Shown piece after piece: positions 3,226 to 14,871 of a DNA stretch of 64,000 nucleotides; within the stretch, counting starts at the first letter, position 1; each line of letters starts with the position of its first letter. Location: contig JAVXAF010000001.1 in assembly GCA_036660635.1 (NCBI GenBank), positions 17,857-81,856 on the forward strand. Direction: 5' to 3'. A model generated the notes under the pieces. That model searched no databases and was not told the DNA's origin. It saw only the letters and a program-made list of their open reading frames with translations. The stretch comes from Clostridia bacterium (GTDB taxonomy: Bacteria; Bacillota; Clostridia; TANB77; CAG-465). A program made the position numbers and the translations under genes.

Positions 3226-3313
3226 AAACTAACAAAAAACAAAAGAGATTTATCAGCTCCTGTATATAACTACTACCAAGATATTAAAGCAAAGAGTTGA
3301 TTTTCTTGGCTTT
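3226..3313 (+). pseudogene. Decayed remnant of the 3' end of the beta-CASP gene plus a degenerate copy of its terminator (duplication scar)
   Basis: aacaaaaaacaaaagagatttatcagctcctgtatataactacta ... aaagcaaagagttgattttcttggctttt is about 75% identical to 917..1003. The hairpin arms now mismatch. Confidence 0.45.
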
Positions 3314-3363: not shown

Positions 3364-3771
3364 TTATTTTTTTCTCTTTTGCTTTTGCTTTTTAATTACT
3401 TTAATATTATTTGTAAAAATAATTAAAAACATTACTGTTGCAATAGAAGATACTATTACAACTATAGCGCTTCCTAACCCTAATAATACCTGAGTGGAAT
3501 CATTAGCATTAGTTATGTATCTTTCAATAGCGTTTCCACTATTAATAAGATCATTTCGCTGTTTTTTAGCTTTTAAGAAAGCTTCTGAAACAGCTTTTTC
3601 GCCTTCTGGAGAATTTGCTACAAGTTCTCTTGTAGTATTAACATTAGCAGAAATGTGCCAAAGTTCATTTGCAGAACTGGCAATTTCCAAAGAAAAAATA
3701 ACGCTCGTAATACTTAAAACAATAAGCATTACATTAATAACCATTTTAATTTTGATTTTTACTGAAGTCAT
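3364..3771 (-). CDS. Hypothetical small membrane protein with N- and C-terminal TM helices (135 aa); present only in copy B of the duplicated module
   Basis: ORF with SD aagga 7 nt upstream of the ATG. Two hydrophobic helices flank a polar middle, and the C-terminus is K/R-rich. Confidence 0.45.
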   Translation of the reverse strand: MTSVKIKIKMVINVMLIVLSITSVIFSLEIASSANELWHISANVNTTRELVANSPEGEKAVSEAFLKAKKQRNDLINSGNAIERYITNANDSTQVLLGLGSAIVVIVSSIATVMFLIIFTNNIKVIKKQKQKRKK

Positions 3772-3847
3772 TATTAAAACATCCTTCTTAATTTATTTTA
3801 TAATAATTATACCACTTTTTCTATGTTATGTCAAGTCAGTTGAAAAA

Positions 3848-5324: not shown

Positions 5325-5369
5325 TTAAATTCACTCCTTTTTAATCAATTTTATTTAGAAAACTTTATC

Positions 5370-5729
5370 TTAAGCTTCTTCTATTTTTTCTGTTTCAACT
5401 TTTTTAGCTTTTGTTGCTGTAGATATTTTTTCAATTTGTATTTTTGTATATGGCTGTCTATGTCCTCTTGTTTTTCTTTCATTTTTTTTAGCTTTGTATT
5501 TATATACAATAACTTTTTTTTCTTTTCCGTGTCCAATTATAGTAGCACTTATTTTAGCACCTTTAATAGTATCTTCACCAATAGTAACTTTTTTACCATC
5601 AGATATGAATAATACTTGATCAAAAGTAATTGTTTTTCCTTCTTGTGCTTCTTCAATTCTGTCTACAAAAACAATGTCTCCTTCTTGTACTTTATACTGT
5701 TTTCCACTAATTTCAACTATTGCGTACAT
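5370..5729 (-). CDS. rplU: 50S ribosomal protein L21
   Basis: MYAIVEISGKQYKVQEGDIV... Confidence 0.9.
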   Translation of the reverse strand: MYAIVEISGKQYKVQEGDIVFVDRIEEAQEGKTITFDQVLFISDGKKVTIGEDTIKGAKISATIIGHGKEKKVIVYKYKAKKNERKTRGHRQPYTKIQIEKISTATKAKKVETEKIEEA

Positions 5730-5836: not shown

Positions 5837-6367
5837 CTATTTGTCAAGAAACTCTAACAATTTTTGCTCACAATCTGCAAATATGTGTTCTAGTTCATTT
5901 AATTCTGGTTTAGAAAATCTATCCAAAACAAAATCTAATATTTCTTGATTTTCGTGTTTTAGTCCTCCAAGTCCTATTCTTAGTCTTGGAATTTCAGTAG
6001 TCGATAGCATTTGTATAATATTTTTCATACCATTATGTGTACCACCACTCCCATTTTCTCTTATTCTAACTTTTCCAAATTCTATATCAACATCGTCAAA
6101 AACTATAAGTATATCTTTATTTTCAACTTTGTACCATTTTTTTAGTTTTTGTACTGCATTACCACTTAGATTCATATATGTAAGAGGTTTTGCAAATACA
6201 ACTTTTTCTCCATTTATATCAATTTCACATATTAGACTATCATGTTTTTTTCTATCTATTACAAAACCATACTTGCCTTCCATATATTCCAAAAATAGCC
6301 ATCCAGTATTATGTCTTGTTTTTTCGTATTTTTCGCCTGGGTTTCCAAGTCCAACTACTATTTTCAT
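5837..6367 (-). CDS. pth: Peptidyl-tRNA hydrolase
   Basis: MKIVVGLGNPGEKYEKTRHNTGW. The second ATG is chosen as the start because it is preceded by ggaagaagg. Confidence 0.9.
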   Translation of the reverse strand: MKIVVGLGNPGEKYEKTRHNTGWLFLEYMEGKYGFVIDRKKHDSLICEIDINGEKVVFAKPLTYMNLSGNAVQKLKKWYKVENKDILIVFDDVDIEFGKVRIRENGSGGTHNGMKNIIQMLSTTEIPRLRIGLGGLKHENQEILDFVLDRFSKPELNELEHIFADCEQKLLEFLDK

Positions 6368-6537
6368 TTTTTTACCTTCTTCCATTAATAGTGTATATTT
6401 ATTTTATCAGCTTTTTATATTACTACTTTGCTAAAAAAGCTTGAATTTTTCTTTTAATTATAGTATCATTATATATGAAAATTGGTAATATGTCAAACGA
6501 AAAACGTTTGTTATTTACTTGAAAGCGGTGATATTTT

Positions 6538-9408: not shown

Positions 9409-12153
9409 CTACTTTCCACAGCATTGTTTATATTTTTTTCCCGAACCACATGGGCAAGGTTCATTTCTTCCAACTTTTTTTGCGACCTTAATAGGTTCTT
9501 TTTTACCTTCATTGGACCCAGATTCGTTTGTAGTGACATTTCTTATTGTAGTTGTTACATTACCTGTATTTTGTTCATCTTTCTTTCTAACTGCAAATAC
9601 GGCTTTAGTAGCATCTGCTTGAATTGAAGAGATTAGTTCTTCAAACATTTCAAAGCTCTCTATTTTATATGCTTCAATTGGATTAGTTTGACCATATGCT
9701 CTAAGTCCTATTCCATCTTTTAGTTGAGATATTGCATCTATATGATCCATCCATTTTTCATTTACTATATTTAATATTAAATGTCTTTCGATCATATTTA
9801 AAACATCTTCTTTTTTAAGATTTCTAAACTCTTCATGCCTCTTGTTATACACATTTTCAACTTTTTTTATTAATATTTCTTCAATTTCTTCACTATCAAC
9901 TACTTCAATTTCTTCTTTTCTTAGCATTTCTTCTTGTGAAAATAGATTTAAAAGTAAAGCATTTATAGTTGTAAAATCTACATCTTCAATTATTTCAGCT
10001 TTTGAAAAATACTCATCTACAATTTTTCGTATGCATGCATTTGAAAGATTAAATACAATCTTAGAAATATCTTGTGTATTTAAAACTTCTCTTCTTTGAC
10101 CATATATTAATTCTCTTTGCTTATTTATAACATCATCATATTCTAAAACTGATTTTCTTATTGAAAAATTTCGTCCTTCTACTTTACTTTGTGCACTTGA
10201 AATTGCATTACTAAGCATACCTTGTTCTATTGGAACATCTTCTGGTAAACCTAATCTTGCAACCATACTTGCCATTCTATCTGTTCCAAATAGTTTCATC
10301 AAGTCATCATCTAGTGCAATATAAAATCTTGTAGAGCCAGGGTCTCCTTGACGCCCAGCACGTCCTTTTAACTGATTATCTATTCTTCTTGATTCATGAC
10401 GTTCACTACCAATTATTCTCAGCCCACCAGCTTCAACAACTTTTTTTCTATCTTCTTCTAATACACTTTTAAATTTCTTTTCTATTTCTACAATATCTTG
10501 TTTTGCTTTTTTTACTTCTTCATTATTATAGTTTATTGGAGTAATAGCCATTTCAATAACTTCAGGTGTATATCCTTTTTTTGATAATTCTTCTTTTATA
10601 ATATACTCTAAGTTTCCACCTAGCATAATATCCGTTCCACGTCCTGCCATATTAGTTGCTATTGTTATAGCTTTATACTTTCCTGCTTGTGCAATTATTT
10701 CAGCTTCTTTTTCATGGAATTTAGCATTAAGCACCTTATGTGGTATATTCTCTTTTTTTAATAAAGCACTTATTATTTCTGATTTATCAATTGATACTGT
10801 ACCTACTAAAACTGGTTGACCTTTTGCATAACACTCTTTTACATCTTCAACTATTGCGATATATTTTGCTTTTTGAGTTTGATATACAACATCATTGAAA
10901 TCTGTTCTTTGAACATCTTTATTTGTTGGTATTTCCACAACATCAAGTTTATATATTCCTTTAAATTCATCTTCTTCTGTTTTGGCAGTACCTGTCATAC
11001 CCGCAAGTTTAGAATATAGTCTAAAATAGTTTTGAAAAGTAATTGTAGCAAGTGTCTGACTCTCAGATGCAATTTTTACATTTTCCTTTGCTTCTATTGC
11101 TTGATGAAGTCCATCACTATATCTTCTGCCTTGCATAACACGTCCTGTAAACTCGTCAACAATTAAAACTTCTCCATCTTTTACTATATAATCTTTATCT
11201 TTTGCCATTAGCCCATATGCTCTTAAAGCTTGATTAATATGGTGTGACATTGCTAAATTGTCTACATCTGAGAGTGAAGTTATTTCGAATTTTTCTTCTA
11301 CTTTTTTTGTTCCATTCTCAGTAAGTGCAACAGTATGAGCTTTTAGATCTACTATATAATCAAAATTTTCATCTGTCTCATCTACTTCTTTATCATTAGC
11401 CTCAACTATAACCTTTGCTTTTAAAGTTTTTGCTATCTTATTTGCTTTTTCATATAAATCAGTTTGCTTATCAATCATACCTGATATAATAAGAGGAGTA
11501 CGCGCCTCATCAATTAAAATAGAGTCTATTTCATCTACTATAGCATAATTTAGATCTCTTTGAGTCATAGAGTCTTTGCTCATAGCCATATTATCTCTTA
11601 AATAGTCAAAACCAAATTCATTGTTTGTACCGTATGTTATATCGGCAGCATATGCTTCTTTTTTTTGCTCAGGAGACATTCCTGATATTACAAGACCTAC
11701 ACTAAGTCCTAAAAATCTGTATAGCTTACCCATCCAAATACTATCTCTTTTAGCAAGATAATCATTTACTGTTACAACATGTACGCCTTTTCCTGATAGT
11801 GCATTTAGATATACAGGCAAAGTTGCAACTAGAGTTTTTCCTTCACCTGTTTTCATTTCAGCTATTCTACCTTGATGAAGAATAATTCCTCCAATCAATT
11901 GAACTCTAAAATGCTTCATAGATAGTACTCTACTACTTGCTTCAGCTACAACTGCATATGCTTCTGGCAAAATATCATCTAGAGTTTCTCCTGCTTCTAA
12001 TCTTTTTTTAAATTCATTTGTTTTATTTTTTAATTCCTCATCACTAAGGCATTTTATTTTTTCTTCAATTTGTTCTATTTTATCCACTACAGGTATAATT
12101 CTTTTTATTTCTCTTTTGCTATATGATCCAAATATTTTTTCTATAACACTCAT
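9409..12153 (-). CDS. secA: Preprotein translocase ATPase SecA
   Basis: 914 aa with the DEAD-like motor and a C-terminal zinc-binding tail CPCGSGKKYKQCCG. Confidence 0.97.
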   Translation of the reverse strand: MSVIEKIFGSYSKREIKRIIPVVDKIEQIEEKIKCLSDEELKNKTNEFKKRLEAGETLDDILPEAYAVVAEASSRVLSMKHFRVQLIGGIILHQGRIAEMKTGEGKTLVATLPVYLNALSGKGVHVVTVNDYLAKRDSIWMGKLYRFLGLSVGLVISGMSPEQKKEAYAADITYGTNNEFGFDYLRDNMAMSKDSMTQRDLNYAIVDEIDSILIDEARTPLIISGMIDKQTDLYEKANKIAKTLKAKVIVEANDKEVDETDENFDYIVDLKAHTVALTENGTKKVEEKFEITSLSDVDNLAMSHHINQALRAYGLMAKDKDYIVKDGEVLIVDEFTGRVMQGRRYSDGLHQAIEAKENVKIASESQTLATITFQNYFRLYSKLAGMTGTAKTEEDEFKGIYKLDVVEIPTNKDVQRTDFNDVVYQTQKAKYIAIVEDVKECYAKGQPVLVGTVSIDKSEIISALLKKENIPHKVLNAKFHEKEAEIIAQAGKYKAITIATNMAGRGTDIMLGGNLEYIIKEELSKKGYTPEVIEMAITPINYNNEEVKKAKQDIVEIEKKFKSVLEEDRKKVVEAGGLRIIGSERHESRRIDNQLKGRAGRQGDPGSTRFYIALDDDLMKLFGTDRMASMVARLGLPEDVPIEQGMLSNAISSAQSKVEGRNFSIRKSVLEYDDVINKQRELIYGQRREVLNTQDISKIVFNLSNACIRKIVDEYFSKAEIIEDVDFTTINALLLNLFSQEEMLRKEEIEVVDSEEIEEILIKKVENVYNKRHEEFRNLKKEDVLNMIERHLILNIVNEKWMDHIDAISQLKDGIGLRAYGQTNPIEAYKIESFEMFEELISSIQADATKAVFAVRKKDEQNTGNVTTTIRNVTTNESGSNEGKKEPIKVAKKVGRNEPCPCGSGKKYKQCCGK

Positions 12154-12412
12154 AACCTTACCTCATTTCAATTTTTTTGTTATTAACTTGTGGTATTATA
12201 TCACATATATCTAGAAAATAAAATAGTATAGTTGATTATTCGCAGTAAAAACGCATAAAATACATCTTTAAAATACTATTTGTTTTATTTTTAATATTAA
12301 TCTTAAATAAAGATTAATATTTACTAAACTATATTATATTTTCAGGCAAACTATTTTCATAATTTTATATTTATTGAATATACTCTACTAGATATAAGGT
12401 TAGGTGGATTAT

Positions 12413-12904
12413 ATGTTTGTTGTTAACTTTAAGTTAAATGTCAAAAAAATATTAATTGTTTGTGTACTTATTGCCTTGCTTGCAGCGGCAATTATTGAAA
12501 GTGGATCAATTAAAACAAGTAGTGTAAATACGAAAAATTCCGATAACTATGACTATGTTATGAATGATGAAAATTTTACAAAAGTATTAAAAGATATTCA
12601 TGAAAATATTGATATGAACTTAGGTAAAACAATCAAAATATCCGGTTTTATCTTTAAAATGCCAGATTTTAAAGATAGTTATTTTGTTTGTGGTAGAAAT
12701 ACCATTGTAAATAATGAAGATACTGTGGCGGGCTTTTTGTGTCAAAGTACTGAGTTAAATAAATTTAAAGAAAATGAATGGATAGAGCTTTCAGGTGTAA
12801 TTATTAAAGGTGAATATAATGGTAATATGCCAATCATAAAAGTTGGAAATATAAAAAAAATAAATACACCCTCAAATACTTTTATTAAAAATATAAATGA
12901 ATAG
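12413..12904 (+). CDS. Hypothetical membrane-anchored protein (signal-anchor N-terminus)
   Basis: The ATG at 12413 is preferred over the listed GTG at 12404 because AGGTGG lies 5 nt upstream. N-terminal TM helix ILIVCVLIALLAAAII. Confidence 0.5.
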   Translation: MFVVNFKLNVKKILIVCVLIALLAAAIIESGSIKTSSVNTKNSDNYDYVMNDENFTKVLKDIHENIDMNLGKTIKISGFIFKMPDFKDSYFVCGRNTIVNNEDTVAGFLCQSTELNKFKENEWIELSGVIIKGEYNGNMPIIKVGNIKKINTPSNTFIKNINE

Positions 12905-12959
12905 TTTTTTAAATCATACATTTTATATTATGCATAAGCAATTTAATTTACATAACAGG

Positions 12960-12988
12960 TTGACATCTATTTTGTTTCGTGCTATAAT
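12960..12988 (+). promoter_or_regulatory. Consensus sigma-A promoter TTGACA-17-TATAAT (orphan transcription unit 1)
   Basis: ttgaca tctattttgtttcgtgc tataat. Confidence 0.6.
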
Positions 12989-12995
12989 ATTTTCA

Positions 12996-13232
12996 AAGCA
13001 TTATATAAGCTTTGAAAAATTTTAAGGCTATGTAAAAATTTTATTAAAGCTTTAATGCAAAAAAATAAAGGAGGCATTGTATTTTTAGGATTTTTACCTA
13101 CTAAGCAAAGTCTAAAAATATCCTTATTCCGTAACATAAGGATACACATTTAGTTGGTTAAACGCTTGTGACAAAGTAAGTTTATCAAAAAGAAGCAGTA
13201 TGAAAATATTCATACTGCTTCTTTTTATACAT
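12996..13232 (+). ncRNA. Candidate small RNA / micro-ORF transcript 1 (~235 nt), promoter to terminator, no annotated gene
   Basis: Bounded by a perfect promoter and the terminator gaagcagtatgaaaatattcatactgcttc+ttttt. Contains internal hairpins (caaagc..gctttg; atcctta..taaggat), an aaggagg motif, and a possible 32-codon ORF MQKNKGGIVFLGFLPTKQSLKISLFRNIRIHI that lacks a good SD. Confidence 0.4.
13195..13232 (+). terminator. Terminator of unit 1
   Basis: gcagtatgaaaatattcatactgc stem followed by ttctttttat. Confidence 0.65.
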
Positions 13233-13306
13233 ATCAATTAATTTGTTTCAATTATTTATAAATTAACATATATGAATGATTTTAAAGTAATATTTTACAT
13301 AATATA

Positions 13307-13335
13307 TTGACTTTTATCAATTATTATTGTATAAT
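13307..13335 (+). promoter_or_regulatory. Consensus sigma-A promoter TTGACT-17-TATAAT (orphan unit 2)
   Basis: ttgact tttatcaattattattg tataat. Confidence 0.6.
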
Positions 13336-13341
13336 ATGCAC

Positions 13342-13536
13342 ATAGGATTTATTAAAACCCAAAATAATTTTTTGGCTATGCCTTAAATTTTTTGAGTTTC
13401 TTAAACCTAAATAAAATGGAGGTAATATTTTAACATGTTTCGGCACTATTTTACTATATATTATATATTAAAATAGTTTATAAAATTCTTATCCCATAAA
13501 GCAGTATGAATCTATTCATACTGCTTTTTGGCATCT
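13342..13536 (+). ncRNA. Candidate small RNA / micro-peptide transcript 2 (~190 nt) carrying a 13-codon ORF MFRHYFTIYYILK (13435..13476) with a GGAGG SD
   Basis: Promoter, then ggagg 12 nt upstream of the ATG, then a terminator aagcagtatgaatctattcatactgcttttt that is nearly identical to the unit-1 terminator. Confidence 0.4.
13500..13536 (+). terminator. Terminator of unit 2 (may also act bidirectionally for pilC)
   Basis: gcagtatgaatctattcatactgc followed by tttttgg. Confidence 0.6.
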
Positions 13537-13539
13537 TTT

Positions 13540-14871
13540 TTAAGGAATTTGTATAAATGATCCCATATATACATTGATAAGTGGTACCATTACAGTAATC
13601 ATAAAGAATATAAGTGCAATACCAACAAAAATATATGTTATATCTGGAAGCCACTTAACAAATTTAGCAATAGACTCATCTATTTCCATTACAATATATT
13701 CATTTACTTTTTCCATCATCTCGGCAAGATCTGTTTTCATTCCTATATCAATCATTTCTGTAACCATTGGTTTAAATAGCTTTTTTTCTTCAAATGGTAT
13801 CATCCAAGATCCACCTGATAAAGCGTTAACTTTACCTGCTTCAATTACAGATAAGAAATAGTAATTTTTAGTTACATTTTTTGAAATATCTAAACTTTCT
13901 TGTATTCTCATACCATTTTTTAAATTAAGCAACATAGCTTGAAAAAATTTACTAATTGTTATATTAATATTTAATGGTCCTATAACCGGTATTTTCATAA
14001 TAAGTCTATCAAAATTATATTTTCCTTTTGGTGTATTAATATATGCAAAAAATCCTAAAACTAATAAACCTATTGCTGCTACAACAAAATACCAATTTGC
14101 TACAAACCACTTTGCAATATTTAGACCAATCATAGTTGCAGCTGGTATTTTTTCATTAGAGTCAAACATATCATATACTGATTGTAAAAGTGGAACACCA
14201 ATAATAAGCGCTGCAAACATTGCGATTATAATTCCAAAAAATTGTAACAGTCTTGGAATTACTGCAGATGTAATTTTTTTTCTTAATTTTGTAGATGATT
14301 CTACATAATCTCTTGCGTAAAGTAATGCTGTATCTAGAGTTCCAGACTCTTCACCAACTTTTACGAAGTTTATATACATAGTTGGAAATACTCTGGGATA
14401 ATTTTCCATTACAGCGTACATTCTCTCACCTGATTGAACACCAATTAGTATATCCTCAATTACATTTTTAAAATATTTGTTTTCAGTACCATCATGCACA
14501 GCTTCTAAGGCTTGAATATTATTAAATTTAGCTTTTTTCAATATATATATATTATTTGAAAATATTATTAAATCTTTTGCGCTTACATAATTTATAAATG
14601 TAATCCCATTTTTTGCTAAATCTTTAAATTTCAGATTTTTAAAATTAATTTTACCACTTTCTTTAACTCTTTGCTTTTTGTCTTCTTTTATTAATTTTTC
14701 ATAATCTAGTCTTTTATATTTCTTTTTATTATCTTTCATTTTTTCTACAAAAATTGGTTGAGTGCCATCTTTTTTTAAACTATCAATGGCTAGTGACTTA
14801 TTTAATGCCATGATTCTTCCTCTACCTAATTTTCCATCTTGATATATAACTCTATATTTGTAACTTGGCAA
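13540..14871 (-). CDS. pilC: Type IV pilus assembly platform protein PilC (GspF family, two GspF repeats)
   Basis: 443-aa polytopic protein with the architecture and location typical of PilC/GspF. Confidence 0.85.
   Translation of the reverse strand: MPSYKYRVIYQDGKLGRGRIMALNKSLAIDSLKKDGTQPIFVEKMKDNKKKYKRLDYEKLIKEDKKQRVKESGKINFKNLKFKDLAKNGITFINYVSAKDLIIFSNNIYILKKAKFNNIQALEAVHDGTENKYFKNVIEDILIGVQSGERMYAVMENYPRVFPTMYINFVKVGEESGTLDTALLYARDYVESSTKLRKKITSAVIPRLLQFFGIIIAMFAALIIGVPLLQSVYDMFDSNEKIPAATMIGLNIAKWFVANWYFVVAAIGLLVLGFFAYINTPKGKYNFDRLIMKIPVIGPLNINITISKFFQAMLLNLKNGMRIQESLDISKNVTKNYYFLSVIEAGKVNALSGGSWMIPFEEKKLFKPMVTEMIDIGMKTDLAEMMEKVNEYIVMEIDESIAKFVKWLPDITYIFVGIALIFFMITVMVPLINVYMGSFIQIP

Follow-up and report, generated by a model that had tools for sequence, protein, structure and literature searches.

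In Bacillus subtilis, SR1 is a dual-function small RNA (sRNA) that also encodes a small peptide, SR1P. Other bacterial sRNAs occur as tandem siblings, such as OmrA and OmrB, which have near-identical 5' and 3' ends and a divergent middle, and also PrrF1/PrrF2 and AbcR1/AbcR2, and local duplication is the accepted origin of such tandem siblings (PMC4211561). A ribosome-binding element may also act without being translated, as in the STAB-SD of the cry3A mRNA of Bacillus thuringiensis, where RNase J1 is blocked by a GGAGG-type element that binds the 30S subunit but does not start translation (PMC4113751). In this study we analyze an intergenic gap in the genome of an uncultured Clostridia bacterium (assembly GCA_036660635.1, contig JAVXAF010000001.1), located within a stretch of 64,000 nucleotides that is referred to as the window and in which all positions are counted. 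The gap carries two units arranged head to tail, and the explanation we favor, at a probability of roughly 0.55, is that they are two species-restricted sibling sRNA genes (~232 nt and ~190 nt), each with its own sigma-A promoter and its own intrinsic terminator. The sequence features, paralogy, island pattern, predicted folds and lineage restriction described below were computed in the analysis, whereas transcription, the RNA ends, the mode of action and the targets are what we infer from them.

Paralogy and signals of the two units

A first-pass annotation of this DNA had proposed a duplicated small-RNA module in a 635-bp gap between convergent genes, with two perfect sigma-A promoters, a strong intrinsic terminator some 190–235 nt after each of them, and terminator stems of nearly the same sequence. 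The gap is present and is exactly 635 bp long (12905-13539), reaching from the stop codon of the DUF1980_C gene (+ strand, 12904) to that of pilC (- strand, 13540), with a composition of 21% GC. Both promoters lie where they had been placed, but only the upstream one, P1, is perfect (12/12 positions), the second, P2, matching at 11/12. The strength of the terminators T1 and T2, ~190-235 nt downstream of the respective promoters, is borne out by folding energies and z-scores, and their stems are identical over 12+12 nt with loops that differ. The duplicated module as a whole is thereby supported, and it can be extended to the promoter elements, an upstream 9-mer, two motifs at fixed spacing, a 5' hairpin and the terminator stem.

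The two units share one order of elements, namely TTTACATAA, N4, TTGAC, N18, TATAATAT, N35-36, GGCTATG, N37, GGAGG and then the stem of 12+12 nt. From the -10 box to GGCTATG the distance is 37 nt in unit 1 and 38 nt in unit 2, from GGCTATG to GGAGG it is exactly 37 nt in both, and the units repeat with a period of 347-348 bp as far as GGAGG, which falls to 306 bp at the terminator. When compared with nhmmer, unit 2 aligns to unit 1 from end to end (E = 0.006), and a weak similarity extends beyond T1 into the counterpart of the pilC 3' end past T2 (21/35 positions, hand count), as would be expected if the tandemly duplicated segment had comprised the terminator together with a short piece of pilC. 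As judged from these alignments, the two units are paralogous throughout.

The segments between the shared elements were aligned separately and compared with shuffles (upstream, promoter spacer, transcription start site (TSS) to GGCTATG, GGCTATG to GGAGG, GGAGG to terminator, and post-terminator), giving z-scores of 0.9-1.3 in five of them and -0.2 in the promoter spacer. The two units agree in 11 of the 12 hexamer positions of their promoters, in the whole 9-mer, 7-mer and 5-mer, and in every one of the 24 bases of the terminator stem. The copies would so be old enough for the background similarity to be gone, and because the segments between the islands stand at random-level identity, it appears that selection has preserved the islands and let the remainder drift.

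Perfect 12/12 sigma-A sites number three in the 64-kb window, against 0.23 in dinucleotide shuffles, and sites with at least 11/12 matches number 19, against 6.6, while weak promoter-like matches (at least 9/12) in the gap region are no commoner than in shuffles (25 vs 23). The other two perfect TTGACA-17-TATAAT sites, at 3834(-), which also has the extended -10 TG, and at 6496(-), are just upstream of same-strand open reading frames (ORFs) at 3364-3771 and 5837-6385, respectively, and thus perfect sites of this type appear to be used as promoters in this window. These two ORFs on the - strand are probably highly expressed genes. The 9-mer TTTACATAA has no exact match in the window besides the two upstream of P1 and P2. 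The arrangement TTTACATAA-N4-TTGAC-N18-TATAAT is also found before unrelated genes in 16 AT-rich phage contigs in IMG/VR (L021-L036); the 9-mer is therefore no marker of the family, and rather than being a specific operator it may work as a UP-like element that enhances strong promoters in general. At 13287-13297, just upstream of the -35 box of P2, and again at 13422-13432, right after the GGAGG of unit 2, the 11-nt sequence GTAATATTTTA is directly repeated without mismatch; by a rough estimate, about four repeats of this type per 750 bp are expected by chance in such AT-rich DNA.

T1 has a folding energy of -23.7 kcal/mol on the + strand and -25.5 on the - strand, and T2 of -20.6 and -22.6 kcal/mol, respectively; the z-scores range from -7.7 to -9.5, and 0 of 200 shuffles fold as well as either hairpin. 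The pattern of the common stem occurs at only these two sites of the window, against an expectation of 0.01 matches. Two of the four loop bases and both flanks differ between T1 and T2, while none of the 24 stem bases does; since a recent conversion tract would have homogenized the loop too, we read the stem identity as constraint and not as recent gene conversion, although this constraint may be simply selection against single changes that destabilize a terminator stem. An automated terminator scan of the region listed 0 sites, a result attributed to the extension of the stems into the A/T flanks, which swallows the T-tail. From its predicted energies on both strands and its A5/T5 flanks T1 is likely bidirectional, and it would then likely end unit 1 and the DUF1980_C mRNA on the + strand and any pil read-through on the - strand. 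Because no hairpin precedes T1, unit 1 is located within what must be the 3' untranslated region (UTR) of DUF1980_C. T2 adjoins the end of pilC, 12 nt past its stop on the - strand, where the U-tract is weak and consists of UUUAUGGG only.

In the predicted RNAs the first stem-loop (SL1) is paired symmetrically about GGCUAUG to ~28-31 nt on each side in both units, which would explain why the TSS-motif and motif-GGAGG distances were kept despite the diverged arms. The SL1 fold has a z-score of -3.1 in unit 1, where 0.6% of shuffles are as stable, and of -2.45 in unit 2, where 1% are. In the minimum free energy (MFE) folds, separate hairpins follow one another down to the terminator, and the whole-unit z-scores of -6.3 (unit 1) and -4.7 (unit 2) are mostly due to the terminators. 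A 6S RNA was considered and rejected, as there is no Rfam 6S match and the string of hairpins is not the rod of ~180-200 nt with a central bubble and paired ends. The features by which tandem sibling sRNAs are recognized are mostly found at this locus: a separate promoter and a separate intrinsic terminator bound each copy, no long ORF lies between them, and the copies share paralogous blocks, the SL1 fold and identical terminator stems. What is lacking among these features is conservation in related species, whose gaps are 44-69 bp long with a single hairpin.

Table 1. Position of the predicted elements of the two units and of the neighboring genes in the window
Feature	Position	Strand	Remarks
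9-mer TTTACATAA, unit 1	12947-12955	+	4 nt upstream of -35; candidate UP-like element or operator
Promoter P1, TTGACA-17-TATAAT	12960-12988	+	12/12 match; extended -10 TG at 12980-81
Unit 1, predicted transcript	12995-13229	+	~232 nt; ends inferred from promoter and terminator
Unit 1, SL1	12998-13058	+	23 bp; GGCUAUG (13026-13032) in 11-nt apical loop
Unit 1, 32-codon ORF	13055-13153	+	no Shine-Dalgarno (SD) sequence before it; GGAGG inside the ORF
Unit 1, GGAGG	13070-13074	+	after A-rich linker (AAAGGAGG); no canonical start within 5-13 nt
Unit 1, second stem-loop (SL2)	13119-13145	+	9 bp; -8.2 kcal/mol, z = -5.0
Terminator T1	13187-13226	both	18-bp perfect arms including A5/T5 flanks
9-mer TTTACATAA, unit 2	13294-13302	+	identical; same offset from -35
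Promoter P2, TTGACT-17-TATAAT	13307-13335	+	11/12 match
Unit 2, predicted transcript	13342-13531	+	~190 nt; ends inferred
Unit 2, SL1	13343-13409	+	25 bp; GGCUAUG (13374-13380) at apex
Unit 2, GGAGG	13418-13422	+	SD-like; 37 nt after GGCTATG
Unit 2, 13-codon ORF MFRHYFTIYYILK and stop	13435-13476	+	putative coding; overlaps AT palindrome/SL2
Unit 2, SL2/AT palindrome	13445-13477	+	z = -4.2
Terminator T2	13498-13529 (core 13498-13527, then U5)	both	same 12+12-nt stem as T1
secA	9409-12153	-	on the DUF1980_C side of the gap
DUF1980_C gene	12413-12904	+	163 aa; flanks the gap, convergent with pilC
pilC/T2SSF	13540-14871	-	last gene of type IV pilus cluster

The locus is 100% identical in contig JAVXFS010000004.1 of assembly GCA_036657795.1 and in two independent Logan assemblies, and the region, being identical in three assemblies, is thus not an assembly artefact; gene callers placed no gene in the gap in three assemblies. 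Contig JAVXFS010000004.1 spans the window positions from about 4586 onward. Sequencing runs in which the organism is present are SRR25820353 and SRR25820370. Upstream of pilC the type IV pilus cluster includes pilT, pilB and a prepilin peptidase gene, and the spore genes SpoIIM, SipL and YunB are found near the locus. Elsewhere in the window, no exact product is on record for the ORF at 423-965. Within the DUF1980_C coding sequence, at 12644-12681 (+), there is a near-perfect hairpin of 12 bp (GGTTTTATCTTTAAAATG...TTTTAAAGATAGTTA), which surfaced as a sub-threshold noise match of Rfam (AMV_RNA1_SL, E = 0.11).

Restriction to one species and possible origin

Rfam 15 gives 0 matches in the whole window at the gathering score, and with E up to 10 the interval 12000-14500 returns only terminator-shaped noise (SpF01 at 29 bits against a threshold of 55, mir-268 at 26.5 against 47). 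The first-pass annotation had named Rfam as a check on whether the region is the leader or 3' UTR of a neighboring gene; Rfam assigns the region to nothing, and so to neither of these. No match was obtained by BLAST of 636 bp against phage and plasmid records. Among 185,579 species genomes the terminator-stem pattern has four matches, each of them an unrelated terminator from Ruminococcus, Methylophilaceae or Lachnospiraceae, in a scan that returned neither of the copies in the window, so that the genome of this organism is evidently outside the collection. The pattern promoter-N37-GGCTATG-N37-GGAGG matches only in coding genes in IMG/VR and the JGI metagenomes, namely a phage gene family and, on our reading, the start of greA, and a pattern of the motifs only has 0 matches in IMG/VR. 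Searches by nhmmer with the single units and with a two-sequence profile found no third copy in the window, in ~350 kb of retrieved loci or in the 10 kb beyond the window.

Loci of relatives were found via homologs of the PilC and DUF1980_C proteins. The gap between the two genes is 44 bp in L004/L005 and L037-L039 (PilC 79%, DUF1980_C 75% identity), 46 bp in L015/L016 (PilC 78%, DUF1980_C 81%), 47 bp in L041/L042 (DUF1980_C 76%) and 69 bp in L007/L008 (PilC 66%). Those of L004, L007 and L015, read by sequence, have one ordinary hairpin each, and none of the loci examined has a gene at this site. L017 (PilC 66%) has another neighbor: pilC is followed by an AT-rich spacer of ~260 bp and then by a same-strand gene starting with MKTKERKKGISLIVLIITIVVIIILA (L017:4206-4541), whose product seems to begin like a pilin or with a signal anchor, and since the convergent DUF1980_C is missing there, the gene order at this junction varies within the clade. 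Two further contigs end exactly at the site, one of them 45 bp beyond the stop of pilC, a stretch that contains no hairpin (L006, PilC 77%; 5330-5374) and one 4 bp past the DUF1980_C gene (L040, DUF1980_C 71%; 3272-3276), and these lineages may carry their own repeat or insertion at the equivalent site.

The hairpin of L015, AAAAAGCAGAGTCAAAACTGACTCTGCTTT, has the base AAAGCAG...CTGCTTT in common with T1 and T2, and its upper stem differs by paired changes. It is thus probable that T1 and T2 descend from an ancestral terminator shared by the convergent genes, and that this lineage first acquired, upstream of that terminator, a promoter-plus-body of ~280 bp and later duplicated the unit in tandem. 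According to this scenario, the module would have been gained beside the DUF1980_C/pilC terminator, and the duplicated segment, with a period of ~348 bp, would have extended through the terminator and a few bases into the 3' end of pilC. Termini of a miniature inverted-repeat transposable element or insertion sequence were also considered and rejected, as there are no convincing terminal inverted repeats; an integron attC site or a Xer/dif-type duplication of the palindrome was dismissed because no R-box or dif-like arms were seen on reading the sequence.

Mode of action and competing explanations

Each RNA is predicted to consist of a 5' hairpin of ~70 nt that carries GGCUAUG at the top, a single-stranded, A-rich stretch running into GGAGG, a short second hairpin and the terminator hairpin. 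The two exposed conserved motifs would be the working parts, as we infer, and the rest of the RNA would be a scaffold. GGCUAUG could serve as a loop seed for base-pairing or as a protein-binding site, and GGAGG as a 30S-binding element, which would be either a stabilizer of the STAB-SD type against a 5' exonuclease or the SD of the micro-ORF in unit 2. A bolder version, which we regard as doubtful, is recent sRNA gene birth: the module arose or landed by the shared terminator, captured it as its 3' end and was duplicated, after which selection preserved only ~60 nt of islands in otherwise randomized sequence, the G-rich motifs GGCUAUG and GGAGG being decoys or sponges for 30S subunits or C-rich regulatory RNAs and not conventional SD-targeting repressors. 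CATAGCC, the complement of GGCTATG, shows no enrichment, and a CsrA sponge acting via GGA motifs was rejected on a modest enrichment only (hand count).

Several points weigh against the sibling sRNA reading. Transcription of the units is a prediction from the DNA sequence, and the selection argument, coming from two paralogs only, is an argument and not a statistical test. The module is absent in six related lineages and no conservation was found outside this species, nor was a homolog found in Rfam, phages, plasmids, the species genomes (terminator pattern only), the JGI metagenomes or IMG/VR. Once the terminators are removed, the bodies exceed shuffles in structure only slightly (z = -2.5 in unit 1 and -1.4 in unit 2), and RNAalifold on a MAFFT alignment recovers the terminator alone as a clear shared helix; SL1 is missed because the two 5' hairpins, alike in architecture, are ~1 nt out of register, and there is no clean column-wise covariation. 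Comparison by RNAduplex with 59 translation-initiation regions of the window was uninformative, as shuffled sRNAs scored as well or better. Finally, the GGAGG and ATG of unit 2 would also fit a coding role.

If GGAGG is a true SD, the units would be micro-peptide genes, of which unit 2 makes a 13-residue aromatic peptide, MFRHYFTIYYILK, and unit 1 is decayed or non-canonically initiated (ATT at 13081, -FRIFTY*). GGAGG does lie at the same position in both units, unit 2 does have an ATG and 13 sense codons, and 6 nt past the GGAGG of unit 1 the run ATT-TTT-AGG-ATT-TTT-ACC-TAC-TAA loosely resembles ATG-TTT-CGG...TTT-ACT of unit 2 with different Arg and Thr codons, an echo of reading frames that is suggestive only; aligning the peptides, however, requires indels of 6 nt and 3 nt and is no better than ungapped DNA (54-58% vs 46%). 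The spacing from GGAGG to ATG in unit 2 is 12 nt, beyond the SD optimum of 7-9 nt in Firmicutes, and in unit 1 none of ATG, GTG and TTG is suitably spaced from GGAGG. A 16-bp AT palindrome takes up codons 4-13 and the stop with its two arms and by itself explains the open frame, and an ATG with 13 open codons near GGAGG is expected by chance in ~4% of cases (rough estimate for this composition). Among the directly neighboring genes with recorded domains (secA, DUF1980_C and the pil genes), none was identified for processing or maturation of a peptide, for its export or as its receptor, and the small ORFs of both strands have no match in Pfam and NCBIfam. We therefore consider peptide genes unlikely. 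Of what the first-pass annotation had seen here, the SD and the 13-codon ORF of unit 2 do exist, but the long spacing, the palindrome and the missing canonical start in unit 1 weaken a coding role; the 32-codon ORF of unit 1 with its hydrophobic core GGIVFLGFLP also exists, but has no SD and a longest hydrophobic run of only ~9 residues (IVFLGFLP); and small signalling peptides, with an ATG in unit 2 only and no partner gene identified, have weak support at most. MQKNKGGIVFLGFLP was considered as a pilin-like sequence and set aside, as it has neither Glu5 nor an SD.

Another reading is that the module is a non-functional by-product, a young insertion duplicated by slippage at the terminator, in which promoter- and SD-like matches are incidental to DNA of 21% GC and any transcripts are noise. 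Its absence from every relative examined and the weakly structured bodies of random-level identity agree with this, as do the sites of at least 9/12, which are no more frequent in the region than in shuffles. On the other hand, sites of 12/12 and of at least 11/12 are rare by the expectations given above (0.23 and 6.6 per 64 kb), and both promoters keep 11/12 hexamer positions while the spacers are randomized. GGCTATG and TTTACATAA stand at exact offsets in both copies, the chance of each being estimated at ~1e-5 to 1e-4, and the identity of 24 stem bases beside changed loop and flanks points to constraint; a by-product is thus improbable in our judgment. A still less probable possibility is an action in cis, in which the promoters fire toward pilC and read-through of T1 and T2 sets antisense transcription or collision with the pilB-pilT-pilC operon, while pil read-through of T2 yields an RNA antisense to unit 2. 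Unit 2 indeed ends 12 nt from the pilC stop, T2 is followed on the - strand by UUUAUGGG only, so that pil transcripts may continue to T1 and overlap unit 2, and read-through products of tandem sRNAs are known, e.g., PrrH (PMC4211561). Against this stand the strength of both terminators on the + strand (-21 to -24 kcal/mol with U5), the lack of any upstream competitor for the 5' arm of T2 spotted on reading the region, and the conservation of GGCUAUG and GGAGG, which such a role leaves unexplained.

A type I toxin-antitoxin locus or a relic leader-peptide attenuator is very improbable. Small ORFs and a bidirectional terminator between transcription units are present, and the order of SD, short ORF and terminator in unit 2 resembles that of ribosome-dependent attenuators, but no ORF has a hydrophobic segment of transmembrane length, the 13-residue peptide being too short for one and the 32-codon ORF lacking an SD. 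The sole promoter-like site of at least 10/12 on the - strand of the gap (13320->13292, 10/12) faces T1 at a distance of ~60 nt and overlaps neither ORF. No gene on the + strand follows either terminator, T1 being followed by P2 and T2 by the convergent pilC 3' end, and no relative has a gene at this site; an antiterminator helix is found neither in the MFE or centroid folds nor on reading the sequence, no dedicated search having been run. Among the three functions that the first-pass annotation had offered, the toxin-antitoxin-like pair fails for want of a membrane-spanning ORF and a credible antisense promoter, and paralogy, islands and folds instead favor regulatory sRNAs.

Comparison with described systems

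The pair of sibling sRNA genes is a candidate and not a discovery, orphan promoter-terminator pairs being a standard class of sRNA prediction. If expressed, it would represent a new sRNA family outside Rfam, in a poorly known lineage of uncultured spore-forming Clostridia and beside a type IV pilus operon. Because perfectly kept islands stand in randomized sequence and sampled relatives lack the module, the pair offers a compact example of how sRNA genes may arise at terminators, duplicate and evolve.

Unit 2 resembles SR1/SR1P in being a predicted independent RNA of ~200 nt with an SD and a short ORF, but this ORF has 13 codons only, has no conserved counterpart in the sibling and overlaps a hairpin, and no homology was detected. 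Unit 1 resembles STAB-SD in that its 5' part has a GGAGG preceded by A residues (AAAGGAGG) and no usable start after it. However, STAB-SD protects a long downstream mRNA, whereas no downstream gene is present here and unit 2 has an ATG at 12 nt.

With OmrA/OmrB, PrrF1/PrrF2 and AbcR1/AbcR2 the pair has no sequence relationship, and the present RNAs are 2-3 times longer (~190-230 nt vs 80-110 nt). The candidate seed is a G-rich loop motif here and not the 5' end. The known pairs are conserved across genera, whereas this one, predicted from sequence, is found in one species of AT-rich uncultured Clostridia. What it shares with OmrA/OmrB of E. coli, PrrF1/PrrF2 of P. aeruginosa and AbcR1/AbcR2 of Agrobacterium and Sinorhizobium is the arrangement, in which two small paralogous units stand in tandem in a single intergenic region and have separate promoters and separate Rho-independent terminators, and with OmrA/OmrB it further shares short blocks that are near-identical, here the motifs and the 3' terminator, around a middle that has diverged.

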